57,368 nt of DNA from a virus. Lineage: Duplodnaviria; Caudoviricetes. The notes under the pieces are model-generated. The model searched no databases. It was not told where the DNA came from and was given only the letters and a program-made list of their open reading frames with translations. The position numbers and the translations under genes are program-made. Shown in pieces: positions 3,126 to 43,865 of this stretch. Numbering within the stretch: the first letter of the stretch is position 1; each line of letters starts with the position of its first letter. The DNA lies in the IMG/VR virus record IMGVR_UViG_3300009610_000033, positions 1 through 57,368 of that record; one strand, 5' to 3'.

Positions 3126-3632
3126 ATGATCCGACGTCTCAAGGGTCTGCGGACCCGAACCAAGGCGGCGCTGTGCGCCGCCATCACGCTCTTCGTGCTC
3201 GGCCTCGTCGCGCCGGCGACGACCCTCGCCGCGTCGCCGGCGATCCGCGTGGCCCAGGAGGTCCCGCTGCCCGACAACATCGAGCAGCTCGTCGCGGCCT
3301 TCCTCACCATCTCGGCGGGGGTGGCCACGGTGATCGGCCTGACCGGTCTCGGCAAGTGGCTCGCGAAGATCAGCGGCCGCGAGATCGGCGGCAACCAGGT
3401 GCGCGCGGTGCTGGGGGTCGCCGCGGTGGGGACGAGTGTGGTCTACGCCTCACTGTGCGCGTGCGCCGGCGTGGTCGCGTTCCCCGTCGGCGGCGACCAG
3501 AGCGAGATGCTGCGCTGGCTGTGGGCGAGTTCGGGCACGCTGATCCTGTTGTCCATGGCCGTGTGGAAGAAGTTCGTGCGCCAGGAGCCGGAGATCATCG
3601 AGCTGCCGGCGGTGTTCGGCTCGACGCAGTAG
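3126..3632 (+). CDS. Holin-like multi-pass membrane protein
   Basis: Three to four hydrophobic segments, lysis-module position, RBS AGGAGG. Confidence 0.6.
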   Translation: MIRRLKGLRTRTKAALCAAITLFVLGLVAPATTLAASPAIRVAQEVPLPDNIEQLVAAFLTISAGVATVIGLTGLGKWLAKISGREIGGNQVRAVLGVAAVGTSVVYASLCACAGVVAFPVGGDQSEMLRWLWASSGTLILLSMAVWKKFVRQEPEIIELPAVFGSTQ

Positions 3633-3660
3633 GCGACGGAGCGAGGGAGTGGGGAAGAGC

Positions 3661-3689
3661 GAGGCCCCCGGTGACGAGCCGGGGGCCTC
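3661..3689. terminator. Hairpin between convergent genes
   Basis: GAGGCCCCCGG-N7-CCGGGGGCCTC is a perfect 11-bp stem. Confidence 0.7.
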
Positions 3690-3702
3690 TGAGCTAGCTA
3701 TG

Positions 3703-4236
3703 TCATTGATCCTTTGCCGCCCGAGATGCCTCGGTGCTTGCGCCCTTGTCCACCTTCTCATCTGAGCGCCCCATGTAGGCGGTGGCGATGGTAGCTAGTG
3801 CCGGGATGAGGGCTACCAGTGATGCAACCGGCATTCCCATCAGAATTAGGCCGGTAGTGGCAGCCAGCGACAGGACAGCTATGGTTGCAGAGAGCCACTG
3901 GCCGCGACGAGTTATCAGCAATTCCTCGCGCTGGAGATCTAACTGCTGTTCCTGCAAGTCCTGCTGTCGCTCCATGAACCGGTGGCGGTGTTCCTGCTCG
4001 CGCTTGGCCATGAGAACGATTTCGGCCGGAGCGTCTGCCCACACGCGACCATACGCCGCGAGCTCGTCTGCGGGCGGCAGGGGGCCTGCGTGAAACTCGT
4101 GCTTCTCGATCTCAACTCGCGCCTCTCCCCAGCCATCACCGCCAATGGCGGCGTCCCCGTCATGGTCGAGATTGGACTGTGCGTCGGTCCGACGACGGGC
4201 AGATACTATTGGGCGCCGCGCCCTGCTCTTCGTCAC
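3703..4236 (-). CDS. DUF2335-like membrane protein
   Basis: FHAGPLPPADELAAY...IVLMAKREQEHRH followed by two C-terminal TM helices. GTG start at 4236 preferred over the ORF-track start at 4548. Confidence 0.78.
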   Translation of the reverse strand: MTKSRARRPIVSARRRTDAQSNLDHDGDAAIGGDGWGEARVEIEKHEFHAGPLPPADELAAYGRVWADAPAEIVLMAKREQEHRHRFMERQQDLQEQQLDLQREELLITRRGQWLSATIAVLSLAATTGLILMGMPVASLVALIPALATIATAYMGRSDEKVDKGASTEASRAAKDQ

Positions 4237-4241
4237 GCGAC

Positions 4242-4490
4242 CTAAAGGCCATCCATCCCGGTCAACCGCTGTTGCATGGGCAACTGGCGGCGCTCGGCCT
4301 CGGCTGGAAACTCCGAGAAGGCCTTCCGGAAGTAGCCGCCAACGCACACCCAGTCGTAATACTGCGACAGAAGCGGGAGTGGCTGGATGGAACGTCGCTT
4401 GGGGGTATGAACACCGTACAGATCGTAGGCCCGAAACATCCCGGCGACGAAGATGGAACGGCGGCGGCGACCGACGTGATGAATTTCCAT
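4242..4490 (-). CDS. Small hypothetical protein upstream of the DUF2335-like gene
   Basis: SIFVAGMFRAYDL...DWVCVGGYFRKA. ATG lies 6 nt downstream of a -10 box. Confidence 0.6.
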   Translation of the reverse strand: MEIHHVGRRRRSIFVAGMFRAYDLYGVHTPKRRSIQPLPLLSQYYDWVCVGGYFRKAFSEFPAEAERRQLPMQQRLTGMDGL

Positions 4491-4496
4491 AGCGCG

Positions 4497-4526
4497 AGTA
4501 TAGGCTCCTACGTTTTGTGACGTCAA
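4497..4526 (-). promoter_or_regulatory. Sigma70-type promoter, probably leaderless transcript
   Basis: TTGACG-18-TATACT on the minus strand. Confidence 0.65.
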
Positions 4527-4548
4527 ACCGTTTCGGAAAAGTGCCCAC

Positions 4549-5007
4549 TCACCCCGTCAGCAGCCGCACCGGCATCTTCCCCGACTCGTACGCCAGCGCC
4601 ACAGCGGGCAGCGCGTGGTCGCCCACCGTCAACCCGTCGGGCATCACCAGGTAGGCGAGCCACTCCGAGTCGAACGTGGCGATGCCGCTCTCCACGGCCT
4701 CAAGCTTCGCCTTGACCACAAGGGCCAGCGCCCGCCACCGCTGCTTCACGGCCTGTTCGTAGGCGCCGGCCGCCGAGCTCGCCGTGCGCAGCCGCCCCGT
4801 CTCGGTGTGCGTGAACTCGTCGTCCTCGGGATCCGGCAGCGGCACGACGATGCGCACCTGGCGGCCAGCCATGCGGAAGCCGACCATGCCCCGGGTGCCC
4901 TCCTCGCCGAACATGAAGCCGTCCGCACCGTAGCGGCGCAGGGTGGCACGGATCTCGGTTATGCTGCGGTCCTGGCTCACGGCCGTGTCGGCGGCGTAGC
5001 GTGCCAT
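4549..5007 (-). CDS. Conserved phage hypothetical protein
   Basis: MARYAADTAVSQDRS...WRAL.LVVKAKLEAVESGI resembles a common phage family. TGATG-coupled to the upstream gene. Confidence 0.8.
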   Translation of the reverse strand: MARYAADTAVSQDRSITEIRATLRRYGADGFMFGEEGTRGMVGFRMAGRQVRIVVPLPDPEDDEFTHTETGRLRTASSAAGAYEQAVKQRWRALALVVKAKLEAVESGIATFDSEWLAYLVMPDGLTVGDHALPAVALAYESGKMPVRLLTG

Positions 5008-5765
5008 CAGGTTGCGACCTCCCATCCTTGCCCATTCCGGTGCAGCTCCCCTGCCTCGATCATCCGCGCCACCGTCGTCGGGCTGGTCTCCGCCCGCCGG
5101 GCGAGCTCCCGCTGTGACACGCTCGGGTGCACCGCTGCAACGCCCCTGACACGCTCGCGCGGATCGGTGACCACCTGGTGCTCCACCTGATCGGCCACCG
5201 TTGCGGGGCGTTCCACCGGGGCCGGCACTGTGGCCACCAGGTCCGACGCGGGTAGCGCCTCCTGCTCCACCACCGGTGCGGGCGGTGCAACAGCCCCCCG
5301 CTCCGTGGCCGCCGATGTCTCCAGCACGCGGGCCAGGTAGAGCGCCAGCAACGGCAGCGTGGCGGACAGGGCGATCAGCTTTAGCTGGGAGTAGCGGGTG
5401 AGCGCGACGAAGGTGGCCACACCGCTAGCGTCGCCGGGACCAGCCACCACAGACAGGGCATGGTCGAAGTTGGCCAGAGCCGAGAGCGCCGCGAACACCG
5501 CCACGCCTGCCCACAGGTCGCGTGCCGGCTTCCCAGCGCGTGCCCGGGCCCCGACTCCCCACGCCAGGGCAATCAGGCCCACGTCCACCGCAACGGCCGC
5601 CATCGGCGCCGTGATCGGGGCGAGTGACCGCAGCCAGGCCGGGGCGCCGCCGTGCTCCAGCGTGCCGAACGTGCCGGCCACGTGTGCCCAGGACGCGACA
5701 AGCACGGTGGCCAGGGCCAGCCACAAAGCGTTTGCAGGCGTTGCGTAGCGTTGCAGGCGTTGCAT
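5007..5765 (-). CDS. Four-TM membrane protein with C-terminal HTH (Spd/DUF2637-like architecture)
   Basis: Four hydrophobic segments, a Pro/Ala linker, then SQRELARRAETSPTTVARMI (HTH). Start is 5765 or 5795. Confidence 0.7.
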   Translation of the reverse strand: MQRLQRYATPANALWLALATVLVASWAHVAGTFGTLEHGGAPAWLRSLAPITAPMAAVAVDVGLIALAWGVGARARAGKPARDLWAGVAVFAALSALANFDHALSVVAGPGDASGVATFVALTRYSQLKLIALSATLPLLALYLARVLETSAATERGAVAPPAPVVEQEALPASDLVATVPAPVERPATVADQVEHQVVTDPRERVRGVAAVHPSVSQRELARRAETSPTTVARMIEAGELHRNGQGWEVAT

Positions 5766-5772
5766 CTTTCCC

Positions 5773-6162
5773 TCACTCTCCAAACGCACGGCCATTCTCC
5801 TCCCACGTCGGTCCCGGCTGGTCCACCACGTCCGGCGTCGGCACACCGCTCAGCATCGCTGCCAGGTAGTTGGACGCGTCCGGTGCTGCCTGCCCGGTCA
5901 TCCCCTTCGTCAGTGCCATTGCCCGCATGGCGATCAGGTCTGCCTCGATCTGCAGGCGCAGCGCTGTGGCCCTGGCTTCCATCGCTTCACGGAAGCGCCG
6001 GAAGTCGATGCCGATCAACCACAGGACGAGGCACAGCAGACAGCCGCCGATGACGACCCAGGTGAGCCGGTCATCCAGGTACACCCGGTGAGCCATGAGC
6101 AGCACGGCGCCGGCGACGCCCACGCCGCCCATCACGCCGCCCGCCCGGAGCGCGCCGTCCAC
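5773..6162 (-). CDS. Two-TM membrane protein with coiled-coil-like tail
   Basis: Two hydrophobic helices followed by a helical segment; in operon between FtsK and the Spd-like gene. Confidence 0.65.
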   Translation of the reverse strand: MDGALRAGGVMGGVGVAGAVLLMAHRVYLDDRLTWVVIGGCLLCLVLWLIGIDFRRFREAMEARATALRLQIEADLIAMRAMALTKGMTGQAAPDASNYLAAMLSGVPTPDVVDQPGPTWEENGRAFGE

Positions 6163-6196
6163 TCAGTCTACCGCCCGCCCACTGAACGGGAGGGTA

Positions 6197-6220
6197 TGTA
6201 GTAGGCTAGTAGCCTAGTAG
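6197..6220. repeat. Three tandem 8-bp repeats NNTAGTAG
   Basis: TGTAGTAG GCTAGTAG CCTAGTAG, just downstream of the FtsK stop codon. Confidence 0.7.
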
Positions 6221-6232
6221 GGGTGGGTGAAG

Positions 6233-7648
6233 TCATGCGACGGCCAGAGCTTGCAGGGCAGCGTCTCGACGGCGACGGGCGGCGTCCATCGCGCCACCGA
6301 ACTCGCGTTGGATGGCGGTGGCGGACGGCGGCAGACCTTCGCTCACGGCTCGCTCCACCGCCCAGCGGACCGCCTCATCGTCAGGCTTGCGCACGTTGCG
6401 AGTGTCGGTGACCACGGAGACCGGCGCCGCGGCCGGTTCCGCCTCGAGCTTCGCCAGCATGGCCCAGTCCGCCGGCCCGCCTAGCGCCGCCTGGATCCGC
6501 ACCGCACGGCCACCGCCGACGAGGATCATGTCGCCCTTCCCGGCCAGCCACTGCGCGCCGGTCTGGTCGATGATGACCCTGGAGCCCGCGGAGTCCTTCA
6601 CCTTGCCGGCGATTGACCAGGTCAACTGGTCCGTCAGCACCTTCGGCAGGTAGTCCCTCGTTGGCCGGTGCGTGGCCACGACCAGCTGCACGGCCCGCTT
6701 CCGACCGCGCTTGGCGATGTCGATGATCACGTCGCGCGTGGCGGCGTCCAGCATGTGGACCTCGTCGACGGCCACGACGAGCGGTCGCTGCCGGGGGTCG
6801 ATCGGGCGGGCGTCCATCAGCTGGCGCGCGTACAGGACGGCGTCCCTCGCCGCATCGACGTCGCGGGCGATCGCGCAGCGCAGCCTGGCTGCCCGGGCGA
6901 AGGGCTCGAACGTCTCCCCGTCGGCGTCAATCAGCACGAGCTCGGCGCCTACGGTATGCAGCTGGAAGACGATCACCTGCAGCATGGTGCTCTTGCCGCT
7001 CTGGGTGGCGCCGGCGATCAGCATGTGCGGCGAGGCGCCCAGGTCGACCATCGCCACCCGGTTCTCCGCGTCCACGCCCACGCCGAACCGGAGGCCCTGC
7101 CGGGGCATCGACGCCAGCGGCACGTCCCGCCGCGGCGACCGCGGGATCTCCACGCGCAGCTCGTCGCCGTAGGTATAGACGCGCGCCCGCGGATGCTTCG
7201 CTGCGGCCCGGGCTTCGGCCAATGCCTTGACGTCGATGTGCGCGTGGCCGATCGCCGGCTGCAGGCGCAGGGTCACGACGTGTGGGGCGATCGTCGGCGG
7301 CAGGGGCGAGGTGACGGTGCCGACGCGGAGGACGCGGGCCCACACGTGCAGCGTCTGCAGGACGGCGCGGCGGTATGGGCCTTCGGGGAGGGTGGTGATC
7401 CGGTTCGACTTCACCATGTTGCACCGAGCGCACAGCGCGCGAACGTTCGCCGGCACGTCGGGGCCCGGAGCGATGCGCGGGTCGCGAGGGTGCCGCGGCA
7501 GGATGTGGTCGCCGTGCATTGTCTCCAGGGTCAGCGTCGCCGGGCACTGGCCTTCGTGCCCCCCGCAGTCGCCGTAGCACTGGCAGCGGCCACCAGAGCG
7601 GCGGAAGGCGCCGCGGCGCAGGGCCTGCCAGCGGGGGGAGGTGATCAT
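6233..7648 (-). CDS. HNH endonuclease fused to FtsK/SpoIIIE-family DNA translocase
   Basis: HNH part: RCQC...HGDHILP...NVRALCARCNMVK. FtsK alpha-like LRVEIP, Walker A GATQSGKS, Walker B VVAVDE, RGRK...VATHRP, GAQWLAGKGDM, and gamma-like SATAIQREF. Confidence 0.88.
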   Translation of the reverse strand: MITSPRWQALRRGAFRRSGGRCQCYGDCGGHEGQCPATLTLETMHGDHILPRHPRDPRIAPGPDVPANVRALCARCNMVKSNRITTLPEGPYRRAVLQTLHVWARVLRVGTVTSPLPPTIAPHVVTLRLQPAIGHAHIDVKALAEARAAAKHPRARVYTYGDELRVEIPRSPRRDVPLASMPRQGLRFGVGVDAENRVAMVDLGASPHMLIAGATQSGKSTMLQVIVFQLHTVGAELVLIDADGETFEPFARAARLRCAIARDVDAARDAVLYARQLMDARPIDPRQRPLVVAVDEVHMLDAATRDVIIDIAKRGRKRAVQLVVATHRPTRDYLPKVLTDQLTWSIAGKVKDSAGSRVIIDQTGAQWLAGKGDMILVGGGRAVRIQAALGGPADWAMLAKLEAEPAAAPVSVVTDTRNVRKPDDEAVRWAVERAVSEGLPPSATAIQREFGGAMDAARRRRDAALQALAVA

Positions 7649-8139
7649 GCGGGCTCAGGTTCCATCAGCCGGCGCGCAGCAGCATACTCGCCGTCTGGGT
7701 CCAGCCACTTCAACCGTCGGCGAAGCTGTGAGACCTGGGCCTCCGCCGAGCGGATCATCTCGGCGCCCTGGACGTTGGCCTCCACGCCGCTCTGGTACGC
7801 GCCAAAGTAGAAGTCGCGTTCGTCGCGCAGCCGCCGCACCTCGGCCACCAGCGTCAGCACTTCTGCAGGGTTCGCGGCGGCGATGAAGGAGGCGTTGGCG
7901 TGCCGCTCATCGTAGTCAATGATTGTGCTGGCTCGGGTACCCGCCACCATGACACCTGCCGGGGAGAACGGCGACCGCTTCCGCGGCATGGGGGCATGGA
8001 GAGGGTCGCGGGCCGCAGACGCATGGATCGTGGGGTAGGTCGCAAGGGCGCTATGCGCCACCTTCCACGGCCCCGGCGTTGCTTCCCCCGCCAGCCGTTC
8101 CAGCTCCGCCAACTGCGCCTCGCTCAGCGGCTCAGGCAT
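7645..8139 (-). CDS. Ead/Ea22-like protein
   Basis: LAGEATPGPW...ANASFIAAANPAEVLTLVAEV signature. Confidence 0.8.
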   Translation of the reverse strand: MPEPLSEAQLAELERLAGEATPGPWKVAHSALATYPTIHASAARDPLHAPMPRKRSPFSPAGVMVAGTRASTIIDYDERHANASFIAAANPAEVLTLVAEVRRLRDERDFYFGAYQSGVEANVQGAEMIRSAEAQVSQLRRRLKWLDPDGEYAAARRLMEPEPA

Positions 8140-8497
8140 TGGCCACCTCCAGCAGCACATCAGCGTGGCACGGCTCGCCCTCGCGGCAGAAGCACGCCAG
8201 GTCGCGGCCGCGCAGCTCGGAGCGGGCCAGCTCGAAGGGGTCACACTTGAACCGGGCCCGCCAGTGAAGGTGCAGCTCGTAGGCCTCGCTGTAACGCTCG
8301 TTGCTCTGAAGGTGCAGCAGGGCAGGCGACCAGTCGCCGCGCAGGGTGTTCCGGTACAGGGCGATCGCCAGCTCGGCGCCCCAGACCTCCACGCGGTACG
8401 GGTTGCCCCACTTGGACGGGCGCGTGACGCTGACCGCGCCCTCGGGCATCCGCCAGCCGCGCGTGCGCTTGCGCTGGATGCGGCGCGGCTCAGCCAT
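8132..8497 (-). CDS. DUF4326 family protein
   Basis: RPSKWGNPY...ELRGRDLACFC...PCHADVL. Confidence 0.85.
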   Translation of the reverse strand: MAEPRRIQRKRTRGWRMPEGAVSVTRPSKWGNPYRVEVWGAELAIALYRNTLRGDWSPALLHLQSNERYSEAYELHLHWRARFKCDPFELARSELRGRDLACFCREGEPCHADVLLEVANA

Positions 8498-8714
8498 TGC
8501 CCACCTCGAACGACAGCGCCTCAATGCGGTCCGCCCAGTGCTGCAGTCCCGCCGGCCGCATCATCACACACCGCGTGCCATCGGACTCGAACACGTCACG
8601 GGTCCGGTCAGCAGCCATCGCCCGCAACTCGTCGGCGATCTCGACCAGCCTCACGGACGGGGGACGGATACGGACGGCGAGGTTACTCGTCTGGGCTGTC
8701 GTCGGCTTCGGCAT
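8490..8714 (-). CDS. Hypothetical protein
   Basis: Overlaps neighbouring genes in the leftward operon; RBS AGGAG. Confidence 0.6.
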   Translation of the reverse strand: MPKPTTAQTSNLAVRIRPPSVRLVEIADELRAMAADRTRDVFESDGTRCVMMRPAGLQHWADRIEALSFEVGNG

Positions 8715-8904
8715 CGGCGGGCTCCTGTTGGTCTGGTAGGAGGATGCCGCGTAGCCGTAGCTGCCGGAGCGCCATTCTGAGCACCGCGGTCGGCGAGATG
8801 CCGAGGTTCCGGACGTAGTGATCGACCGTCGCCTGTTCCTCGTCTGTGAGCCTGATGCTCATCGGTGCGCGCTTCGCCATCCTCGGGAGTGTAGCGGCAT
8901 TCAC
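8683..8904 (-). CDS. Ribbon-helix-helix (CopG/Arc-like) regulator
   Basis: MSIRLTDEEQATVDHYVRNLGISPTAVLRMAL. First gene of the operon. Start is GTG 8904 (leaderless) or ATG 8880. Confidence 0.75.
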   Translation of the reverse strand: MNAATLPRMAKRAPMSIRLTDEEQATVDHYVRNLGISPTAVLRMALRQLRLRGILLPDQQEPADAEADDSPDE

Positions 8905-8910
8905 GGCGGG

Positions 8911-8939
8911 ATTCTAGCGCGAAGCGCAGCGCATGTCAA
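8911..8939 (-). promoter_or_regulatory. Strong leftward promoter with palindromic operator
   Basis: TTGACA-17-TAGAAT. The inverted repeat GCAGCGCAT-GTCA-ATGCGCTGC covers the -35. Confidence 0.8.
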
Positions 8940-8948
8940 TGCGCTGCA

Positions 8949-8977
8949 TTGCACTGCGCTGGACGACCGCGTATCAT
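8949..8977 (+). promoter_or_regulatory. Divergent rightward promoter
   Basis: TTGCAC-17-TATCAT. Confidence 0.6.
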
Positions 8978-9064
8978 TCCGTCGCCGCATGGGAGGGAGA
9001 TGGGCCGCCGGCAGGGTGCACTGCCGGCGGCCCGGTCGGGGAGATCACTCGCCGACACCTCCAA

Positions 9065-9082
9065 ATAATAGCACGGGCGTTC
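9065..9082 (-). promoter_or_regulatory. GAACGCCCGTGCTA operator/extended -10, copy 1
   Basis: GAACGCCCGTGC-TATTAT on the minus strand. Confidence 0.65.
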
Positions 9083-9083
9083 T

Positions 9084-9287
9084 GTGGGGAGATCACTAAG
9101 CAGGCCCGCTGCGCGCCGGCGCCGGTCCGTGCCGCCAGACGACGAGGCCGATGTCGAGGGCCTCGGCGAGTTCCTGCGACGGGTAGAGGAAGCCGAGGCC
9201 GAGGACCCGGACGAGCCTGGGCGCTGGGCGGCGTTCTTCGCGCGGCTGTCGCGGCTCATCCCAGGCCGCGAAGACCCGACGGAGTGA
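9084..9287 (+). CDS. Small acidic hypothetical protein
   Basis: Plausible composition; start uncertain. Confidence 0.4.
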   Translation: MGRSLSRPAARRRRSVPPDDEADVEGLGEFLRRVEEAEAEDPDEPGRWAAFFARLSRLIPGREDPTE

Positions 9288-9307
9288 GGCTCAGCGGCGT
9301 GTCGCGG

Positions 9308-9558
9308 GTACCCATCCTGTACCCTAGTTGCGGCTGACGGCGGCCCGTGCCGGCTGACAAATGCAGGCATTTAGGCCGCGTTTACACTGTCGGAATGACC
9401 ATCATCGGTGGCCTCTGACGACGGGTGGCCCGCCTCCAAATCCGCAGGTTGCAGGTTCGAGTCCTGTCCCTCCTGCCACGAAGTTCCCTTTTGGAGAGGG
9501 CCGTCAGCGTCGAAGCTGGCGGCCCTTCGTGTTTCGTACCCTACGCCTACCCTAGTTG
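9308..9558. other. attP: core is the 3' half of tRNA-Trp(CCA) at 9434-9478, with flanking arm-type repeats
   Basis: CTCCAAA anticodon loop, GGTTCGAGTCC T-arm, and CCCTCCTGCCA end. TACCCTAGTTG occurs at 9320-9330 and 9548-9558, each preceded by a degenerate TACCC copy. Confidence 0.88.
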
Positions 9559-10705
9559 ACTCTGGCGAGGCCTCCGCGGGGTCGAGTCCGAGGGCCGCGT
9601 CGAGCTTGCCGATCATACTGTCCAGCGCGCCCGGAACCACGTACGCATAGGTCTCCGTGACCCGCAGCTCGCAGTGGCCCATGAGATCCCGGATCACCAC
9701 CAGCGGCACCCCCTGGTCCTGCAGCAGCGCGGCGAAGACGCGACGCAGCGCGTGCCACCGGATGGGCTTCAGGCCGTGGGACTTCAGGATGATCTTGAAG
9801 TTGTTGGTCAACGACGTGCCGTCCCGCATCCCGCCGGTTGGGTTGGCGAAGACGAACTCGCCGCCTTCCCAGGCGTCGCCGGCGAGGATGCGGTCCTCCT
9901 CCATCTGCTGTCGCCGTAGCGCGAGCGCTTGGATGGCGAGGGCAGCGAGCGGGATTGGTCGCTGGCTCTTCGCGGTCTTGGGGCGGCCGAGCACTCGCTT
10001 CCCGTCCCGGACGTCAACCGCGTGCCGCACGTTGACCTGGCCGCGGGCCTCGTCGACGTCCTGCCACCGAAGGCCGAGCTGCTCGCCCTGGCGCATGCCG
10101 GTAGCGATGGCAAACATGATGACCGGCAGATGGCGGCTGTCCTTGAAGGCGTCGAGGATCTGCCGCGCGTCCGCCGGCGTGAGGACCTCGCGCTCGAACA
10201 CCGGTCGCTCGCCCTTGGGCATCTTGGCGAGGGACGCGGCGTTGGTGGGCAGCCCGTAGTCGATCTGGGCCTGCTTAAGCGCGCCGGACAGGGTCGCCCT
10301 GGCGTTGCGGACGGTGGACTCGGAGAGCCCGCGGGAAAGGAGCTTGGCCAACATCCGCGTCACATGGCCGGGCACCAGGTCGACTAGCTTTAGCTTGCCG
10401 ATCGCCGGGTTGATGTAGTCGGTGACGTGCTGCGAGTAGCTCCGGAAGGTGCGCGAGCGCACGGATCCCTTGGCGTGTAGCTCCAGCCAGTCGGTGAGGT
10501 ACTCTCCGACCGTAACGCCGTCCCGCGGCTTGGACATGCCACGCTCGGCGTCGGAGCGGGCTGCCCGGGACTTGGCCATGGCGCCGGACTTGGTGTCGGC
10601 GTAGAAGGAGCACTGCCGGCCGTCGACGACGACCCGTGCCTCCCAGAAGGTCGAGCCATCCTTTCGTGTCCGCTGCCGGATGCTGCCTTCCCCACGTCCT
10701 CGCAT
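9371..10705 (-). CDS. int: Tyrosine integrase
   Basis: N-terminal RGRGEGSI, GMRQGE (R), PKT (K), HALRR, MGH and catalytic Y in TETY. RBS AGGAGGT. Confidence 0.96.
   Translation of the reverse strand: MRGRGEGSIRQRTRKDGSTFWEARVVVDGRQCSFYADTKSGAMAKSRAARSDAERGMSKPRDGVTVGEYLTDWLELHAKGSVRSRTFRSYSQHVTDYINPAIGKLKLVDLVPGHVTRMLAKLLSRGLSESTVRNARATLSGALKQAQIDYGLPTNAASLAKMPKGERPVFEREVLTPADARQILDAFKDSRHLPVIMFAIATGMRQGEQLGLRWQDVDEARGQVNVRHAVDVRDGKRVLGRPKTAKSQRPIPLAALAIQALALRRQQMEEDRILAGDAWEGGEFVFANPTGGMRDGTSLTNNFKIILKSHGLKPIRWHALRRVFAALLQDQGVPLVVIRDLMGHCELRVTETYAYVVPGALDSMIGKLDAALGLDPAEASPESTRVGVGYETRRAASFDADGPLQKGTSWQEGQDSNLQPADLEAGHPSSEATDDGHSDSVNAA
9497..9534 (+). terminator. Terminator following the tRNA 3' fragment
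   Basis: AGGGCCGTCAGC-N6-GCTGGCGGCCCT followed by TCGTGTTT. Confidence 0.7.
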
Positions 10706-11057: not shown

Positions 11058-12665
11058 GTGGACAACACCCTCTACTACGGCGACAACCTCGACATCCTCC
11101 GACGGTACATCCCCGACGAGTCCGTCGACCTGGTGTACTTGGATCCCCCGTTCAACTCCAACGCCACGTACAACGTCCTGTTCGGCGACGCCAAGGGCGC
11201 GATGTCGACGGCGCAGATCCAGGCGTTCGACGACACGTGGCACTGGGACCACAGCGCTGCTGAGGCGCTCGACGATGTGCTGCAGTACGGCGGCCGGCCT
11301 GCGGAGGCGATGCGGGCGTTCGAGCTCCTGCTCGGCCATGGGGACATGCTGGCGTACCTGTCGATGATGGCGCCGCGGCTGATCGAGCTGCGGCGGGTGC
11401 TGAAGCCGACGGGTAGCATCTACCTGCACTGCGACACTACGGCAAGCCACTACCTGAAGGTGTTGATGGACGCGGTGTTTGGGCCGGCGCAGTTCCGGAA
11501 TGACATCGTATGGCAGCGGACCGGGGCGCATAACGATGCACGCCGCTTCGGTCGTGTCACCGACACCATCCTGTACTACACCAAGGGTGCCGACTGCACG
11601 TTCCATCCGCAGTACGAGGTGTACGACCCAGCCTACATCGAGAAGCGCTACAGATATCTCGATCCTGACGGCCGTCGCTTTTGGGCGAACACCGCGACGA
11701 GTCCCAACCCGAGGCCGAACATGATGTACGAGTGGAAGGGTCAACCAAGCCCGCCAAATGGTTGGCGCTTTGAGCGTGCCACGATGGAGCGCATGGAACG
11801 GGAGGGCCGACTCTACTACTCTAAGTCGGGCATGGTCTACGTGAAGAACTACCTGGACGAACAGAAGGGGCGCCCAGCGCAGAATCTGTGGACCGACATT
11901 GTGATGTCGAAGTCCGGTGCCGAACGCCTCGGCTACCCCACCCAGAAGCCGCTCGCCCTCCTGGAGCGCATCATTGCCGCCAGCTCCAACGAGGGCGATG
12001 TCGTCCTCGACCCCTTCTGTGGGTGCGGCACCGCCGTGGTCGCCGCGCAGAAGCTCGGCCGGCGGTGGATCGGCATCGACCTCACGCATCTGGCCATCAA
12101 CCTCATGCGCACGCGGATCAAGGACACGTTCGGCGAAGAGGTGAAGTTCAAGGTGGTGGGAGAGCCGACGACGGAGCAGGAAGCGGCAGAGCTCGCCCGC
12201 ACCGACCCGTACCAGTTCCAGTTCTGGGCCCTGGGCTTGGTGGGCGCGCGGCCGGCGGAGCAGAAGAAGGGTGCGGACCAAGGCATTGACGGCCGGCTGT
12301 ACTTCCGCGACGACCCGAAGGCGCCGTCGAAGCAGGTGATCATCAGCGTGAAGGCGGGCAAGCTGCAGGCCGGCTACGTGCGCGACCTGGTCGGGGTGAT
12401 CGCCCGGGAGAAGGCAGCCATCGGCGTGCTGATCTCGATGGGTGAGCCGACCAAGCCCATGCGCGAGGAGATCGCCAGCCACGGGTTCTACGAGAGCCCG
12501 TGGGGCACGCGCCACCCGCGCATGCAGATGCTCACCATCGAGCAGCTCATGGCCGGCAAGCGCATCGACTACCCGGCGAGCGGGCAGCGTAGCGAGACGT
12601 TCCGGCAGGCGCCGCGGGCGTCGGGGGATGCGGGGCGGCAGGGCGAGTTGTTCGGGGAGGAGTAG
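11058..12665 (+). CDS. Beta-class N6/N4 DNA methyltransferase with C-terminal Mrr-like PD-(D/E)xK domain
   Basis: YLDPPF, YPTQKP and LDPFCGCGT. C-terminal ADQGIDG...IISVKAG. Confidence 0.9.
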   Translation: MDNTLYYGDNLDILRRYIPDESVDLVYLDPPFNSNATYNVLFGDAKGAMSTAQIQAFDDTWHWDHSAAEALDDVLQYGGRPAEAMRAFELLLGHGDMLAYLSMMAPRLIELRRVLKPTGSIYLHCDTTASHYLKVLMDAVFGPAQFRNDIVWQRTGAHNDARRFGRVTDTILYYTKGADCTFHPQYEVYDPAYIEKRYRYLDPDGRRFWANTATSPNPRPNMMYEWKGQPSPPNGWRFERATMERMEREGRLYYSKSGMVYVKNYLDEQKGRPAQNLWTDIVMSKSGAERLGYPTQKPLALLERIIAASSNEGDVVLDPFCGCGTAVVAAQKLGRRWIGIDLTHLAINLMRTRIKDTFGEEVKFKVVGEPTTEQEAAELARTDPYQFQFWALGLVGARPAEQKKGADQGIDGRLYFRDDPKAPSKQVIISVKAGKLQAGYVRDLVGVIAREKAAIGVLISMGEPTKPMREEIASHGFYESPWGTRHPRMQMLTIEQLMAGKRIDYPASGQRSETFRQAPRASGDAGRQGELFGEE

Positions 12666-16283: not shown

Positions 16284-16477
16284 CGACCATCGACCCGCGC
16301 GACATCATCGTCGCCGCCACCGACCGCAGCGAAGGCCGGGCGCCCGGCACGCTGGAGGTGATCGAGTACCGACGGGGAGACGGCGCTGCCATTCGCCGGG
16401 CCCTCCTGATCCGGGACGTTGAAGGGCTGCTCACGGCCGCCGGGATGACTCGGCTGGATGAAGGGGAGGACGACTGA
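16280..16477 (+). CDS. Hypothetical protein
   Basis: ATGA-coupled. Confidence 0.6.
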   Translation: MTTIDPRDIIVAATDRSEGRAPGTLEVIEYRRGDGAAIRRALLIRDVEGLLTAAGMTRLDEGEDD

Positions 16478-16478
16478 C

Positions 16479-17585
16479 ATGCCAATCCAAGGAATGACGG
16501 GAGAGTACCGGTGGCCGCGGTTGGGCTCAATCCGGAAGGGCGAGGCCAAGCCCAACGACCGGCAGCCAGGCAAGGACCTGGGTGACGAACTCCGCTTCGT
16601 GGGAGTGGACGACGGGGTCACCGCCGACTGGGTCGCAACCTTTGGCGCAGCCAAGGTCGACGAGATCCTCATCCGGCTGCCTTTCCCAACCGTCGACGAG
16701 AACTGGCAGGCTTGGATGGAGAGCTATGTCGCTGGCGGACTGGTCCATCGCTGCGATCGGCGCACCGTGGTCCTGCAGCTGAAGCCCGATGGCACCTACG
16801 ACGACACGCCGCGGCCCTGTGACGGGCGATGCGGGGCGAAGCCGGTGGGGCGGCTCGAGGTGTTCGTGCCCGCCTTCCAGCGGATGGGCACGGTCACAGT
16901 GCACACCACCAGCATTCACGACATCATGAACCTCGACGGCTGCCTGCGATCGCTGGCGGTCCTGGTGGGGGACCTGACACGGGTGCCCTTCACTTTGAAG
17001 CGCGTGCAGCGTCCGATCTCCACGCCCGGCAGCGATGGGAAACGAGCCCGCCGGCCGGCCTGGCTGCTCCACATCGAGCCTGCGCCGGATTGGGTGCGAG
17101 CCATCACTGCCGGCGGGCAGGCGCTCGCCGAGCTCGCGGGCCCCGAGGTCCTCGCGTTGCCAGCCCCATCGCCGGCACAGCTCCCCGAGCACCAGGTGGT
17201 AGTAACCACCCCCACTGGCGAGATCATCGACGGCGATGCCAGCAAGGTGCAGAACGGATTCCGGGCCCGCATCGAGGCCTGCACGACGCTCGAAGAACTC
17301 CGTGCCCTGTGGCCGGACATCGTCGCGATCGAAGAGGCCGCCTACAAGGCCAACGTCATCGCGCTCTGGCGAGTCCAGGCGGTGGTGATCATGCGCGCCA
17401 TGATCCCGGGCTCGGACGTCGAGACGCGGGGCGCGCTGGCCCAGCGGCTGGAGCAGCTGCCGGACACCACGCCGGGCCGGGACGAGGCGCTGCGCGAGAT
17501 CGAGGACATCAACTGGGCGGACAGCATCCAGGCGGGACAGCGCCAGCGCCAGGCGGCGATGCTCGCCGAGTCGGTGCCCGCATGA
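16479..17585 (+). CDS. Gp3-like (recombination directionality factor-like) protein
   Basis: PRLGSIRKG...HRCD...C..C.AKPVGRLEV...TTSIH...VPFTLKR pattern. Confidence 0.72.
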   Translation: MPIQGMTGEYRWPRLGSIRKGEAKPNDRQPGKDLGDELRFVGVDDGVTADWVATFGAAKVDEILIRLPFPTVDENWQAWMESYVAGGLVHRCDRRTVVLQLKPDGTYDDTPRPCDGRCGAKPVGRLEVFVPAFQRMGTVTVHTTSIHDIMNLDGCLRSLAVLVGDLTRVPFTLKRVQRPISTPGSDGKRARRPAWLLHIEPAPDWVRAITAGGQALAELAGPEVLALPAPSPAQLPEHQVVVTTPTGEIIDGDASKVQNGFRARIEACTTLEELRALWPDIVAIEEAAYKANVIALWRVQAVVIMRAMIPGSDVETRGALAQRLEQLPDTTPGRDEALREIEDINWADSIQAGQRQRQAAMLAESVPA

Positions 17586-22940: not shown

Positions 22941-23068
22941 TCCGGAACGCCGCGCGCTGGCTCGTCTGGGCGGCGCTGGCGCTGGTCGCCGTGCTGTGGA
23001 GCGCTGGGGTTGAGTTCTTCACCGACGACGAGGGCGTGGTGGACGGGCTGATCGGAGATGACCGTTGA
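22937..23068 (+). CDS. Small single-TM protein
   Basis: GTGA-coupled; one hydrophobic segment. Confidence 0.5.
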   Translation: MIRNAARWLVWAALALVAVLWSAGVEFFTDDEGVVDGLIGDDR

Positions 23069-24479
23069 ACGAACCAAGGAGGGTACCGAAGTGAAGCAGC
23101 GAACCGAAGGCCGGCTGATGTACTCGTTATCCCAGCTCCAGGCGTGGAAGCGCAACTACAACCGCGGCGACGTCCACGCGATCGCCGCCAGCATCCAGCG
23201 CTGGGGATTCAACGGCGCGCTCCGTGTGTGGTCCGGCGACGATAGCCAGGCGCCCACGGTGATCGCCGGCAACCACACGTACCTCGCGCTCCTGCAGCTG
23301 AAGGACGAGGGCGCCGATCCACCCGTGCACGTCGACGTCGCCCCGGACGGTAGCTGGCAGGTGGCGTGCGTCGACGTCTCCCACCTGGCCTACCACGAGG
23401 CCGAAGCGTTCGCCATCGCCGACAACCGCGTCGCATCCCTGGCCACGCACGACGACGAGAAGCTCGCGCTACTCCTGCGCGAGATCTCCGATCAGAACCC
23501 GGAGGACCTCGCGGCCATCGGGTACGACCTGGACGACATCGAGAACCTGCTCCGCCGCCTTGGCGACCTGGACGACGATCGCCCCGCCGCGCCGGAAGCA
23601 CGCCTCGACCGGCTCAAGGAGCTGAAGGAGGAGTGGGGCACGGCAGCCGGCCAGCTGTGGGTCATCCCCAGCGCCACGTGCCCGGGCAAGGAGCACCGCA
23701 TCGTCTGCGGCGACGCCACCGACGGTGCGACAGTCGCCCGGCTGATGGCCGGCGAGCGCGCGGTGCTCTTCGCCACCGACCCGCCCTATCTGGTCGACTA
23801 CGATGGCACCAACCACCCACAGGCCAAGGGCACCGGCGCACGTGAGAAGAGGATCGCCAACAAGGACTGGGACGAGGTCTACGACGACAAGTGGGACGAC
23901 GCCTCGCAGGGCGCCGACCTCTACCGCGGCTTCATTCAGGCGGCCATCGAACACGCCATCACCGAGGACGCCGCCTGGTACTGCTGGCACGCGTCGCGGC
24001 GCCAGGCAATGCTCGAGGGCGTATGGGAGGAGTTCGGCGCGTTCGTGCACCAGCAGATCATCTGGGCAAAGAGCCGGGGCGTGCTCACGCGCAGCTGGTA
24101 CCTGTGGAGCCACGAGCCGTGCTTCTTCGGCTGGATCCGCGGCCAGAAGCCCAAGCGCGTGGCGGACAACCACCCAGGCAGCGTCTGGCAGGTGGCCACG
24201 GCCGACGCCGACACCACCGGCGATCACCCGACGTCGAAGCCCACCGCGCTCTGGGAGCTGCCCATCGAGCAGCACACCAGCCGCGGCGACCTGATCTACG
24301 AACCCTTCAGCGGCAGCGGCACCGCGCTCGTGGCGGCCGAGCGCACCGGCCGCATCGCGTACGCCTGCGAACTCCAGCCCGCGTTCGTCGCCGTTGCCCT
24401 CGACCGGCTCGCGCAGATGGGCTTGGAGCCTCGGCTGGAGAGTGCCGAAACAGTGACCGAGACCGTGACCGAACAGTAG
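23058..24479 (+). CDS. ParB-like domain plus DNA methyltransferase
   Basis: SIQRWGF...IAGNH...IADNR (ParB-like); HRIVCGD, TDPPY, HPTSKP and YEPFSGSGT. Confidence 0.92.
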   Translation: MTVERTKEGTEVKQRTEGRLMYSLSQLQAWKRNYNRGDVHAIAASIQRWGFNGALRVWSGDDSQAPTVIAGNHTYLALLQLKDEGADPPVHVDVAPDGSWQVACVDVSHLAYHEAEAFAIADNRVASLATHDDEKLALLLREISDQNPEDLAAIGYDLDDIENLLRRLGDLDDDRPAAPEARLDRLKELKEEWGTAAGQLWVIPSATCPGKEHRIVCGDATDGATVARLMAGERAVLFATDPPYLVDYDGTNHPQAKGTGAREKRIANKDWDEVYDDKWDDASQGADLYRGFIQAAIEHAITEDAAWYCWHASRRQAMLEGVWEEFGAFVHQQIIWAKSRGVLTRSWYLWSHEPCFFGWIRGQKPKRVADNHPGSVWQVATADADTTGDHPTSKPTALWELPIEQHTSRGDLIYEPFSGSGTALVAAERTGRIAYACELQPAFVAVALDRLAQMGLEPRLESAETVTETVTEQ

Positions 24480-26408: not shown

Positions 26409-27080
26409 ATGAGTGGAGAGCCAAAGCGATGTGGAGCCAAGACCAGGAGCGGCAAGCCGTGCCAGCAGTGGGCGGTGACCGGCCGCGAGCGCTGCCGCAT
26501 GCACGGCGGTCGGCAGCCGCGTGGCCTGGCGCACCCAGCCACCAAGCACGGGCGCTTCTCCAAGGACCTGCCGGTGCGGCTGCTGGCGGACTACGAGGCG
26601 GCGCTCAAGGATCCGGACCTGGTGGCGCTGCACGAGGAGATGGCGCTCGTCCAGGCGCGCGAGGCGGACCTGGTGCGCCGCGTCAGCACGCGGGAGGCGG
26701 GCGAGAGCTGGGGCGACGTGCGCGCGGCGATGGCAGCGTTCCGGAAGGCCCAGCGCGACGACGACGCACCGGCGGCGGCCGCGGCGCTCAAGAGGATGGA
26801 GGCGGCGCTTGCCGAGGGCGAGGACGACTACGCGGCATGGGCCGAGCTCCTGGCAACCATCGAGCAGCGCCGCAAGCTGGCCGACACCGAGCGGCGCCGG
26901 CTCGAGGCGCTGGAGCAGAACATCAACCGACAGCAGGCGCTGGTGCTCGCGGCCGCGCTGCAGGACGCGGTGAGGCGCCATGTCCCTGACCCAGCAGTCC
27001 TATCAGCCATCGGCCTTGAGCTCGGTCGCATCCTCGCTCACAACGGGGCTGTTCGCCGAGATGGTGGCGGCGATGGTTGA
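26409..27080 (+). CDS. terS: Terminase small subunit (HGGxSTG-like N-terminus)
   Basis: CGAKTRSGKPC...RCRMHGG...KHGRFS, directly upstream of terL. Confidence 0.78.
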   Translation: MSGEPKRCGAKTRSGKPCQQWAVTGRERCRMHGGRQPRGLAHPATKHGRFSKDLPVRLLADYEAALKDPDLVALHEEMALVQAREADLVRRVSTREAGESWGDVRAAMAAFRKAQRDDDAPAAAAALKRMEAALAEGEDDYAAWAELLATIEQRRKLADTERRRLEALEQNINRQQALVLAAALQDAVRRHVPDPAVLSAIGLELGRILAHNGAVRRDGGGDG

Positions 27081-28794
27081 CGGCATGGCGCAGTCAGAGC
27101 GACGGACCACGGCGCCGCCGGCGTGGCAGTGGATCGCCGAGAACTTCCAGGTGATCGATGCCGAGACCGGGAAGGCGCGGCCCTTCATCGTCTGGCCCTG
27201 GATGGTGCGGGTGCTGCTCGACACGCTGCCGGAAGGCGAGGACCTGCCGTACAGCCTGCTCCTGTACAGCACGATCAAGAAGGCTGGCAAGACGGCGTTC
27301 AACGCGGCCATCTGCGCCGAGCTGATGTTCAACCGCGCACCCGACGGCGCCGAGCTCTACAACTTCGCCAACGCCAAGGAGCAGGCGTCGGGCCGCGTCT
27401 ACCGCGCCGTGAAGTACGCGATCGAGCATAACCCGGCGTTGCTCGCTCGCTGCAGCAGCGCCCCGTTGGAGACCATCACGCGCCTGCGAGGCGGCACGAC
27501 CCTGCAGGCGATGGCGGCCATGCACGCCAACATCGCCGGCGCCAACCCGTTCTACTCCGGATGGACCGAGCTCTGGGGCTACGAGCACGAGAAGGAGCTC
27601 AGGGCCTGGGCCGAGATGACGCCGCCGCCAACCATCCGCAACAGCCTGCGGGTGGTAGACACGTACGCCGGCTACGAGGGCGAGAGCGGGCTCCTGAACC
27701 AGCTGGAGGACCAGCTGAAGGCCTCGCCGCGGCTGCACGTCGACGGCTTTGAGCTGCCAGCCGAGTATCGCGCCTACGCCCACCAGGTCGCCGCACAGCA
27801 GCCGGAGCTGGCCGAGTACCTTCTCCCGGCCGACGACGCCGGAAGCGGGCCGGTGCAGTTCGACTACGGGCTACCGATCTACGCCGACGTCGAGTCGCGC
27901 CTCTACGGATTCTGGGACGAGGGCGAGCAGGCCCGGCGTGTGCCATGGCAGCGGGGTGTCCGCGGCCTCGGCTACTACGCGGCGGAGGCGCGCTCGCTCC
28001 TGCCACAGCAGTACCGCCGGCTGCACCTGAACATGCGCGCCAAGCGGGGCGGCCAGTTCGTGGGCATTGAGGTGTGGAACGCCCTGCCGCGCGTCACCGC
28101 CTGGAGCACCGGCGACATCGACGCGGTGGTGCTGGCCGTGGACGCGGCGACGAAGGACGACCACATGGCCCTCGTTGGCGTCAGGGTCCGCGACCGCCGC
28201 GCCGAGGAGTGCTTCGTCAAGGAGTGGTTGCCAGAGGCCGACGAGCGAGCCGGCGGCGCCCTGGTGCTGGATCCGCGGGCCGTGCGCACAGAGGTACTCA
28301 GGCTGCGCGACGAGGGCATGCGCATCCTGGCGATCGGCTTCGACCCGTACCAGTTCCACGCCACGTACCTGGAGCTGGCCGCCGACGGGTTCAACATGGT
28401 CGAGATCACCCAGGGTCAGCCGCGGTTGGAGTCCGACACGCTGCTCTGGACTCTGATCCGCGACGGCCGCATCGCGCATACCGGGCACGGCGCACTCCGG
28501 GTCGCCGTCGAGAACGCCAACGCCCTCGCTGAGACGGGCAAGACAGGCGACGAGCGGCGGCTCCGGATTGTGAAGGGTAGCGGGAAGGTCGACCCGCTGG
28601 TGGCGTTGTCGATGGCGACGTGGGTGGCGCTCAACCCGCCGAAGGAGCGCGATGCGTCGGTGGGCGTCGCCCCGGGTTCGGGCCTACTCGCAGGCGCCGG
28701 TAGCAGCAGCGGCACGCGAGACAGGGCGTCGGGCGGCAGGCTGCCCACGCGGCAGGGCGGGGCGGCGCAACGGTTCAAGAGGGTGCAGAGGTAG
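26980..28794 (+). CDS. terL: Terminase large subunit
   Basis: Walker A-like IKKAGKT, ANAKEQA, nuclease LAVDAATKDD, FDPYQ and KVDPLVALSMA. Start may be later (27061 or 27073). Confidence 0.9.
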   Translation: MSLTQQSYQPSALSSVASSLTTGLFAEMVAAMVDGMAQSERRTTAPPAWQWIAENFQVIDAETGKARPFIVWPWMVRVLLDTLPEGEDLPYSLLLYSTIKKAGKTAFNAAICAELMFNRAPDGAELYNFANAKEQASGRVYRAVKYAIEHNPALLARCSSAPLETITRLRGGTTLQAMAAMHANIAGANPFYSGWTELWGYEHEKELRAWAEMTPPPTIRNSLRVVDTYAGYEGESGLLNQLEDQLKASPRLHVDGFELPAEYRAYAHQVAAQQPELAEYLLPADDAGSGPVQFDYGLPIYADVESRLYGFWDEGEQARRVPWQRGVRGLGYYAAEARSLLPQQYRRLHLNMRAKRGGQFVGIEVWNALPRVTAWSTGDIDAVVLAVDAATKDDHMALVGVRVRDRRAEECFVKEWLPEADERAGGALVLDPRAVRTEVLRLRDEGMRILAIGFDPYQFHATYLELAADGFNMVEITQGQPRLESDTLLWTLIRDGRIAHTGHGALRVAVENANALAETGKTGDERRLRIVKGSGKVDPLVALSMATWVALNPPKERDASVGVAPGSGLLAGAGSSSGTRDRASGGRLPTRQGGAAQRFKRVQR

Positions 28795-29322: not shown

Positions 29323-29463
29323 ACTACTACCCGTTGTGGTGGCCAGCACGGCACCAACCGAATAGCAGGGCCGCAACTGTGTGAACACACCGCAGTCCCG
29401 CCCGTCGTCCGTGGCCGCTCGCCCCAACAGGCGCCCGCCAGGGATGGCGGGCTCTTTTGCTTT
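29297..29463 (+). promoter_or_regulatory. Head-operon promoter and leader ending in a terminator-like hairpin
   Basis: TTGACG-17-TAGACT, then GCCCGCCA-GGGA-TGGCGGGC-TCTTTTGCTTT before the portal ATG. Confidence 0.65.
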
Positions 29464-29479
29464 AGGCCACGGGGACGGA

Positions 29480-43796: not shown

Positions 43797-43865
43797 TCCA
43801 CAGGTAGCACCCAGGCCATAGCGCGCATGACGCCCGGCCGCGAGAAGCGGAAGGGCGTTGGCGCA

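Follow-up and report, generated by a model that had tools for sequence, protein, structure and literature searches.

The stretch analysed here, referred to as the window, is a phage sequence of 57,368 bp (positions 1 to 57,368 of IMG/VR record IMGVR_UViG_3300009610_000033). The subject of this report is a gene on its minus strand, at 6233–7648, which encodes a protein of 471 amino acids (aa) joining an N-terminal HNH endonuclease domain to an FtsK-type DNA translocase motor. Sequence comparisons indicate that the fusion is genuine and recurrent, with both of its activities under selection. By analogy with other motor-nuclease systems, we tentatively favour the reading that the protein is an ATP-driven translocating endonuclease with which the phage, as an accessory weapon, attacks the DNA of its host or of competitors. 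The domain make-up of the protein, its invariant catalytic residues, the absence of a membrane anchor, its operon and promoter, and the distribution and phylogeny of its family were computed.

Pfam analysis of the whole protein identified the FtsK_SpoIIIE domain (PF01580), above the cutoff with an E value of 4.9e-12, and HNH with an E value of 4.8e-4; when residues 1–100 were scanned alone, HNH (PF01844) was matched at 3e-5, with 24.5 bits against a cutoff of 21.4. PHROGs gave an FtsK/SpoIIIE-like family (5.7e-32) together with five HNH families, and the HNH matches in PDB were 4h9d (1e-4) and McrA (0.002). The HNH domain lies at residues ~20–83 and is followed by an FtsK alpha-like region (~105–175), the beta motor with Walker A GATQSGKST (212–220) and Walker B DE (295–296), and a gamma-like helix-turn-helix (HTH) at ~425–466. 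The nuclease has the residues of an HNH beta-beta-alpha-metal core, which comprise a catalytic His and Asn, a second Asn or His, and Cys/His zinc ligands; it is the variant with Asn, not His, at the last position. A first-pass annotation of this DNA, made from the sequence alone, had read the gene as an HNH domain joined to an FtsK motor, and Pfam, PHROGs, hhalign and PDB agree with that reading.

Residues 105–466 were aligned by hhalign to the alpha, beta and gamma regions of cellular FtsK, in a profile-profile comparison of the fusion family with 20 aligned sequences of cellular FtsK (E = 1.3e-31, 362 columns). The best PDB match was the Pseudomonas aeruginosa FtsK motor 2iuu (1.9e-28), with the alpha-domain strands aligned, and the ESM Atlas model of the fusion resembles FtsK/SpoIIIE clusters with a TM-score of 0.64–0.67 over ~330–361 residues. 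Both the hhalign and the PDB alignments cover the alpha region (~105–175); the Pfam FtsK_alpha model was not matched by the fusion itself, but was matched by the sister protein of phage contig L235, described below. The C-terminal 45 residues align to the gamma-domain helices in hhalign and the protein ends before the FtsK wing; Pfam FtsK_gamma (PF09397) was not matched even at E ≤ 10. The motor had been described as apparently complete, which holds for alpha, beta and Walker A/B, and only in part for the gamma winged helix, whose helices align and whose wing is absent. In FtsK this domain binds KOPS and XerD.

No transmembrane (TM) helix was predicted in the fusion, in agreement with the first-pass annotation; the single hydrophobic stretch (222–240) is the core strand after Walker A. 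The N-terminal four-TM anchor of FtsK is absent and the N-terminus is occupied by the HNH domain. In a crude survey of 91 viral FtsK-like loci, described below, most phage FtsK-like open reading frames (ORFs) had no N-terminal anchor, so its absence is usual for phages, as Pope et al. had noted earlier for cluster J (PMC3706429). Compared with cellular FtsK/SpoIIIE (P. aeruginosa, 2iuu), the fusion has alpha, beta, Walker A/B and gamma helices that align, but it lacks the four-TM anchor, the linker and the gamma wing, carries an HNH domain at its N-terminus and falls in a separate clade.

Among 5.8 billion clustered proteins, 20 homologues with 44–63% identity were found, all of metagenome origin. 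At least the HNH core is present in 19 of the 20 in the alignment, where P0009 starts inside the HNH domain and P0019 is the homologue wholly without the N-terminus; a precomputed Pfam HNH match was available for 17. A profile search of 1.84 billion representatives yielded 241 matches at E ≤ 1e-30, and the best 150 of these 241 included 17 full-length fusions (462–535 aa; clusters at 50% identity) and 79 short soluble proteins (330–480 aa) beginning at the alpha domain. In an alignment of 18 fusions, the most divergent at 24% identity, the residues that never vary are C22, C35, H48, G62, N68, C76 and N77 in the HNH domain, G213, G218 and K219 in Walker A, and D295 and E296 in Walker B; six further columns are also invariant (D241, L256, R281, L368, G372 and one more G). 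Because the HNH and Walker residues are invariant, both active sites appear to be under selection. The gamma-like HTH is likewise kept across the family.

Three other studies yielded contigs that match the window exactly at 7024–7402, 7084–7296, 7284–7434, 7400–7550 and 7568–7718, and the piece at 7284–7434 runs from the HNH CxxCN motif to the start of the alpha domain. Since identical contigs from other studies bridge the HNH/FtsK junction, an assembly chimera is excluded. The doubts attached to the first-pass annotation, that the HNH or Walker residues might be degenerate and that the fusion might be unique or chimeric, are thus answered by the residues that stay invariant down to 24% identity, and by the close homologues, the 17 fusion clusters and the bridging contigs, respectively.

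In the first 100 alignment columns of the fusion and its homologues, the HNH domain was found to take two forms on closely related motors. The long form contains two inserts, one of the CxC...C type and one rich in proline; the short form is canonical, except that its second Cys pair often begins with His. Such variation points to a nuclease module that is rapidly remodelled or exchanged.

In a FastTree phylogeny of 91 proteins, 26 fusions included, 23 of the fusions fell in one clade with 99% support, together with three HNH-less proteins, and the remaining three formed a second small group; all fusions were nested in a 100%-support clade of short soluble forms, apart from cellular FtsK. IQ-TREE analysis of 43 proteins recovered the fusion and soluble clade with 97% support and placed as its sister group (87%) the soluble FtsK-like genes of L179, L184 and L235, three phage contigs from IMG/VR. 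The cluster J mycobacteriophage FtsK-like protein and two actinobacterial plasmid 'FtsK' proteins joined cellular FtsK, and pIJ101 Tra formed a very long outgroup branch. The feature neighbours of the fusion in ESM Atlas are short FtsK-domain clusters with mostly viral labels, which we take as a lead only. The three sister loci are as follows.

L179, 4020–7543: FtsK-like gene with an actin-like ALP/ParM gene (7e-24) just upstream and a small 2-TM ORF directly after it
L184, 9325–11752: FtsK-like gene with a small 2-TM ORF directly after it
L235, 8953–12663: FtsK-like gene with a 2-TM ORF three genes on; between the two lie an HTH gene and a weakly HNH-like ORF

The FtsK-like genes of these contigs encode soluble proteins of 439–473 aa. 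The HNH-like ORF of L235 is a separate gene two genes downstream of the FtsK-like gene, with a weak Pfam match below the cutoff. Together with the cluster J proteins Omega gp203 and Phoebus gp199, the FtsK-like proteins of the three contigs resemble the fusion in size (~440–470 aa), in having no membrane domain and in a divergent gamma region; they differ in having no HNH domain and share ~29–30% identity with the fusion, in the motor only. The cluster J proteins differ further in grouping with cellular FtsK and not with the fusion clade. Soluble phage FtsK motors without a membrane domain were already published (PMC3706429), and Pope et al. presumed there that the cluster J proteins bind and translocate along phage DNA; from 2013 at the latest, the role of phage FtsK-like motors has been described as unclear (PMC3706429).

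The fusion was not found in 50,697 phage records, where none of the 76 matching records covers 80% of the query, nor in 72,556 plasmid records. Apart from this record itself, scans of IMG/VR and of GTDB species genomes with specific sub-alignments gave no relative, and scans of the same two collections with the distant fusions gave only separate FtsK-like or HNH matches. A metagenome scan with generic Walker-A patterns gave, among the matches listed, cellular FtsK genes only. As judged by these searches, the distribution of the fusion is sporadic and accessory, and its family comes only from metagenomes.

The fusion gene lies in a leftward operon that adjoins the integrase gene. From 8904 down to 4549 every gene is on the minus strand and has a high G+C content at third codon positions (GC3). 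The features of the operon and of the gene beyond it are the following.

8947–8926, minus strand: perfect 9-bp inverted repeat GCAGCGCAT/ATGCGCTGC, read from sequence, centred on the −35 hexamer
8939–8911, minus strand: operon promoter TTGACA-17-TAGAAT, 11 of 12 consensus positions matching
8683–8904, minus strand: first gene, putative ribbon-helix-helix DNA-binding protein of 73 aa (weak matches)
8490–8714, minus strand: ORF of 74 aa, GC3 0.83, overlapping the ends of both neighbours
8132–8524, minus strand: DUF4326 protein of 130 aa (Pfam DUF4326 2.3e-20; phrog_464 9e-31)
7645–8244, minus strand: Ead/Ea22-like or DUF6221-like protein (phrog_4029 3.9e-12; weak Pfam Ead_Ea22 0.0017)
6233–7648, minus strand: HNH-FtsK fusion, 471 aa
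5773–6162, minus strand: 2-TM protein of 129 aa (119 aa if the ATG at 6132 is used)
5007–5765, minus strand: multi-TM protein with C-terminal HTH, 252 aa
4549–5025, minus strand: phrog_17260 protein of 158 aa (PHROGs 5e-59)
3703–4548, minus strand: DUF2335 membrane protein with its own promoter-like site at 4526–4497

Four promoter-like sites were observed in the 8.5-kb region against 0.6 expected from shuffles, and the consensus promoter that the first-pass annotation had placed at the head of the operon was confirmed. The 9-bp inverted repeat is likely the operator of this promoter. The 73-aa protein is a candidate autoregulator of the operon; its assignment as a ribbon-helix-helix regulator, made in the first-pass annotation, is qualified by matches that are all weak (DUF6290, E = 0.0035; RelB/DinJ, 6e-4; VirD1, 0.0027). 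For the 74-aa ORF, Pfam gave nothing at E ≤ 10. The stop codon of the Ead/Ea22-like gene overlaps the ATG of the fusion gene, and its true start is probably downstream of 8244; the real start of the DUF2335 gene is probably internal to the ORF listed. The genes named for this operon in the first-pass annotation are all present, but the 74-aa ORF and the DUF4326, Ead/Ea22-like and phrog_17260 genes had been omitted.

A homologue of the phrog_17260 protein is found in cluster F mycobacteriophages (e.g. Yoshi gp51) with 59% identity. Because the cluster F homologues sit in an equivalent leftward block, between the integrase and lysis genes, we regard the block as a variable accessory region of the phage. 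No statement on the expression timing of the analogous cluster F block was found in PMC7474061. When 10 operon peptides were compared by tblastn with 324 FtsK-like loci, only relatives of the phrog_17260 protein were found.

Two genes encoding membrane proteins follow the fusion. The 2-TM protein has two predicted TM helices, as the first-pass annotation had stated, followed by a helical acidic C-terminal tail; it has only two homologues besides its own entry and matches no family in the scans run, which included Pfam, PHROGs and PADLOC. In the second protein, annotated earlier as 4-TM with an HTH, the membrane part was borne out, with three to five hydrophobic helices (~4) by Kyte-Doolittle analysis, while the C-terminal HTH is weak (HTH_24, E = 0.009). 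Among its 18 homologues, the membrane part is conserved and the C-terminal HTH domains are variable and interchangeable. As a lead only, ESM Atlas gave a resemblance to the DUF2637+HTH architecture (TM-score 0.43–0.5, scores below 0.9), but none of the 19 members of the family matches the DUF2637 model PF10935 at E ≤ 1. The protein had no tblastn match in the 72,556 plasmid or 50,697 phage records.

Co-occurrence of the membrane genes with the fusion was assessed by a proxy, the equality of the longest-contig sizes listed for homologues, in place of reading the neighbourhoods themselves. No longest-contig size is common to the fusion homologues (20) and the 4-TM (18) or 2-TM (2) homologues, and several fusion homologues sit on contigs of 10–40 kb; the proxy is weak, with most contigs short and the membrane proteins diverging quickly. 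The co-occurrence that the first-pass annotation had expected was thus not borne out by this proxy, and within its limits the fusion, 2-TM and 4-TM genes assort independently. Most likely the membrane proteins are independent accessory genes and not obligate subunits of the fusion. A small 2-TM ORF does lie within three genes after the FtsK-like gene in all three sister-clade contigs. Homology of the 2-TM protein of the window to these ORFs was considered and rejected: a MAFFT alignment was suggestive, and the hhalign probability was 0.7%. A crude survey (ORFs and Kyte-Doolittle analysis) of 91 viral FtsK-like loci, chosen by hand from 160 IMG/VR loci, found an ORF with at least two TM helices downstream in 14 (two positions counted) and upstream in six (one position counted), and hence no enrichment of membrane ORFs after viral FtsK-like genes.

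For the hexamer, translocation, DNA cleavage, target and expression timing of the fusion, we infer the following scheme. The protein would be a soluble, ring-forming FtsK-type translocase of double-stranded DNA (dsDNA), in which an active HNH endonuclease takes the place of the membrane anchor and linker. The alpha and beta domains would assemble around duplex DNA and pump it in an ATP-driven manner, and the truncated gamma-like HTH may help to load or orient the ring. Six N-terminal HNH domains would then nick or cut the DNA while it is reeled in, giving a processive 'pump-and-cut' nuclease. The target would be host or competing mobile-element DNA, and expression would come from the autoregulated leftward operon beside the integrase gene. 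For such a protein, the most economical mechanism is that of a ring-shaped motor which cleaves duplex DNA while pumping it.

Several known systems offer points of comparison. In HerA-NurA, a hexameric pump of the FtsK/HerA superfamily feeds DNA to a nuclease. The fusion has weak HerA matches in Pfam, PADLOC and PDB, but HerA belongs to another branch, and the nuclease of HerA-NurA and HerA-effector pairs is a separate subunit of different fold. In the temperate phage lambda, Ea31/Ea59, from the 'ea' accessory region near att, confers an ATP-dependent nuclease function that the phage can do without; an Ea22-like gene adjoins the fusion here. Both Ea31/Ea59 and Septu pair an ATPase with an HNH nuclease, but the two are separate proteins and the ATPase belongs to the ABC/OLD type, not to FtsK. 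A further comparison is with the anti-invader systems in which FtsK/HerA motors are coupled to nucleases, such as DndH and the 'HerA/FtsK capture systems' (PMC10853773); the theme also appears in PMC12839542. DndH/SspH and the capture systems resemble the fusion in coupling a HerA/FtsK-class translocase, sometimes with FtsK alpha, to an endonuclease and HTH (PMC10853773). They differ in that the nucleases named there are of restriction-endonuclease fold or a 3'-5' exonuclease, within large multidomain or multigene host systems (PMC10853773), whereas here a phage encodes one minimal polypeptide, HNH-FtsK.

No HNH-FtsK fusion was found described in the literature; supplements lay outside the search, and those of PMC10853773 and PMC12839542 might list one. 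The first-pass annotation knew of no described system with this architecture, which stands for the fusion itself and not for its relatives, as PMC3706429 and PMC10853773 already present soluble phage FtsK motors and nuclease-coupled capture systems.

A role in conflict is favoured for three reasons: the fusion gene is placed in an accessory block, it is distributed sporadically, and FtsK/HerA motors with nucleases are a published anti-invader theme. We also count in favour the PADLOC matches of the motor (given below) and the separate, weakly HNH-like ORF two genes after the soluble FtsK-like gene of L235. The accessory nature of the gene is itself drawn from its Ead/Ea22-like, DUF4326 and phrog_17260 neighbours. 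The first-pass annotation had named, as one of two options, a sequence-directed nuclease that translocates and serves exclusion, defence or the breakdown of host DNA, and we retain this, by inference, as the best reading. Several observations weigh against it. The 'accessory weapon' part draws on this one locus and on analogy, and no module for discriminating self from non-self was identified. The PADLOC matches of the fusion motor (mad8, 1.3e-17; SspH, 8e-14; HerA models) are confined to the shared ATPase fold. Beyond these, the HTH of the 4-TM protein has one weak match (mad1, 9.4e-4) and the other six operon proteins have none; no named defence system of PADLOC 2.0 was matched in all components. 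Finally, the ALP/ParM gene (L179) or methyltransferase (L235) adjoining the FtsK-like gene of the sister contigs fits DNA handling equally.

Handling of the phage's own DNA is the alternative that survives best, although we consider it unlikely. The motor would segregate, decatenate or resolve replicated or plasmid-like phage genomes, or aid their maturation; the gamma-like HTH would select a site, which the HNH domain would then cleave. The translocation along phage DNA presumed for cluster J proteins in PMC3706429, the ALP/ParM-like actin gene just upstream of the FtsK-like gene in L179 and the retention of the gamma-like HTH across the family are all consistent with this. However, the phage has a canonical terminase, as the first-pass annotation had noted in correctly setting aside a packaging motor; the fusion gene lies in an accessory block, away from the replication and packaging genes; and the family is rare and sporadic. 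Nor were over-represented strand-polar 7- or 8-mers of the KOPS kind (FtsK orienting polar sequences) found in the 57-kb genome beyond coding bias.

Two further alternatives involve the membrane proteins. In the first, to which we give a slim chance, the fusion would dock at the membrane on the 2-TM and 4-TM+HTH proteins and cut and pump there, either linearising phage or prophage DNA and exporting it to neighbouring cells without virions, as a TraB-like spread with its own nuclease, or capturing and shredding DNA that comes in through the envelope (exclusion at the membrane); if true, this would be a mechanism not yet described. The second, with a slimmer chance again, is TraB-like spreading, in which the fusion would pump phage or prophage dsDNA to neighbouring cells or compartments through a 2-TM/4-TM pore, with the HNH domain linearising the circle. 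An order of int, a small DNA-binding protein, an FtsK-like ATPase and membrane proteins is the layout of actinomycete integrative conjugative elements, which the order here resembles. The operon shares with the Streptomyces TraB/Tra and Spd modules of pSVH1 and pIJ101 an FtsK-like ATPase gene with a regulator before it and small membrane-protein genes after it. The 4-TM+HTH protein also has the general architecture of SpdB2, a DNA-binding protein with four TM helices (PMC4447253), and 2-TM ORFs follow the FtsK-like gene within three genes in all three sister-clade contigs.

Several observations weigh against TraB-like spreading. In hhalign, the motor matches cellular FtsK (E = 1.3e-31, profile-profile) much better than it does pIJ101 Tra (E = 4.2e-8, profile against single sequence), a generic FtsK-fold similarity that goes with the long branch of pIJ101 Tra; pSVH1 TraB lay outside the comparison. 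The 4-TM family matched pIJ101 SpdB with an hhalign probability of only 0.2%, in a comparison of which pSVH1 SpdB2 was not part, and the 4-TM protein has no plasmid or phage match. No clt-like repeat array was found near the fusion gene in 3600–9500, only two-copy repeat families; a clt locus consists of direct 8-bp repeats that the C-terminal HTH recognises. TraB has no nuclease. Fusion homologues and membrane-protein homologues have no longest-contig size in common, no homology to the 2-TM ORFs of the sister contigs was detected, the 91-locus survey gave no downstream TM enrichment, and a filamentous host is an assumption. The TraB and Spd layout proposed in the first-pass annotation is accordingly not supported, no Spd homology and no clt-like repeats having been found and Tra being only distant.

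HNH genes are common mobile cassettes in phages. Such a selfish or homing endonuclease cassette, landed by chance in frame on a phage FtsK-like gene and uncoupled from it, could account for the long and short HNH subtypes on closely related motors and for the three HNH-less proteins inside the main fusion clade, but it is very improbable, as the fusion persists in 17 clusters at 50% identity and an accidental insertion would not be expected to keep its HNH metal and catalytic residues invariant across divergence down to 24% identity.

The record is linear, with a G+C content of ~68% and a completeness of 68% as estimated by CheckV. The phage is a temperate tailed phage from a groundwater metagenome, and its main other genes are these.

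34–1881: endolysin with GH25 domain
11058–12665: DNA methyltransferase, first of two
23058–24479: DNA methyltransferase fused to a ParB-like domain, second of two
26980–28794: large terminase (TerL, canonical)
29381–31933: portal
34111–35346: major head protein
43827–49913: ORF of 2028 aa, read as tape measure

The two methyltransferases could shield the phage genome from cleavage, whether by the phage's own nuclease or by restriction in the host. The terminase had no tblastn match (E ≤ 1e-5) among 50,697 deposited phage genomes and the region of the fusion operon had no megablast match in the phage collection, so the phage is very distant from cultured phages. The high G+C content and the mycobacteriophage homologue of the phrog_17260 protein suggest a host in the Actinomycetota. 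Contigs identical to the operon (short pieces within 5504–8990) were found in soil, sediment and freshwater-sediment metagenomes of three other studies; because of these, we regard the phage or a very close relative as widespread, geographically or ecologically, at low abundance.

Next to the operon lies the integration region.

9371–10705, minus strand: tyrosine integrase

A tRNA-like attP core was found in the 3' end of the integrase gene, at ~9434–9466 (the tRNA-like sequence has loose ends on both sides), and no complete tRNA is present in the record. In contigs of other metagenomes, the sequence continues as the 5' part of a tRNA at 9434 and diverges after 9466. Because other contigs continue in this way at 9434, the record is taken to be the non-integrated form, with the left arm on the same molecule as the structural genes. 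The core resembles the anticodon-to-T-arm part of a tRNA, with the anticodon loop read as CTCCAAA, which would make it tRNA-Trp, and integration would replace C-terminal integrase codons. The interval that separates the operon promoter from the integrase contains a perfect inverted repeat of 13 bp (9002–9014/9021–9033) and two exact copies of GGGGAGATCACT (9038–9049 and 9086–9097). These elements could serve as a terminator or operator, or as integrase sites of the arm type. The same interval holds a small acidic ORF of 67 aa without a family, on the plus strand at 9084–9287. In the protein encoded at 16458–17585, Pfam matched PF18897 (1.6e-16), the domain of Gp3-like recombination directionality factors. 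Factors of this type are known from phages that use serine integrases, and the only integrase recognised here is the tyrosine recombinase.

The permanent fusion of a motor to an HNH domain offers a direct biochemical handle on the widespread soluble FtsK-like motors of phages. If cutting needs ATP and translocation, the fusion would show what phage FtsK motors act on. It would also be a very compact single-polypeptide translocating nuclease, a minimal counterpart of DndH-type 'FtsK capture' proteins and of HerA-NurA, and may be of use in the study of mobile-element conflicts and as an enzyme.

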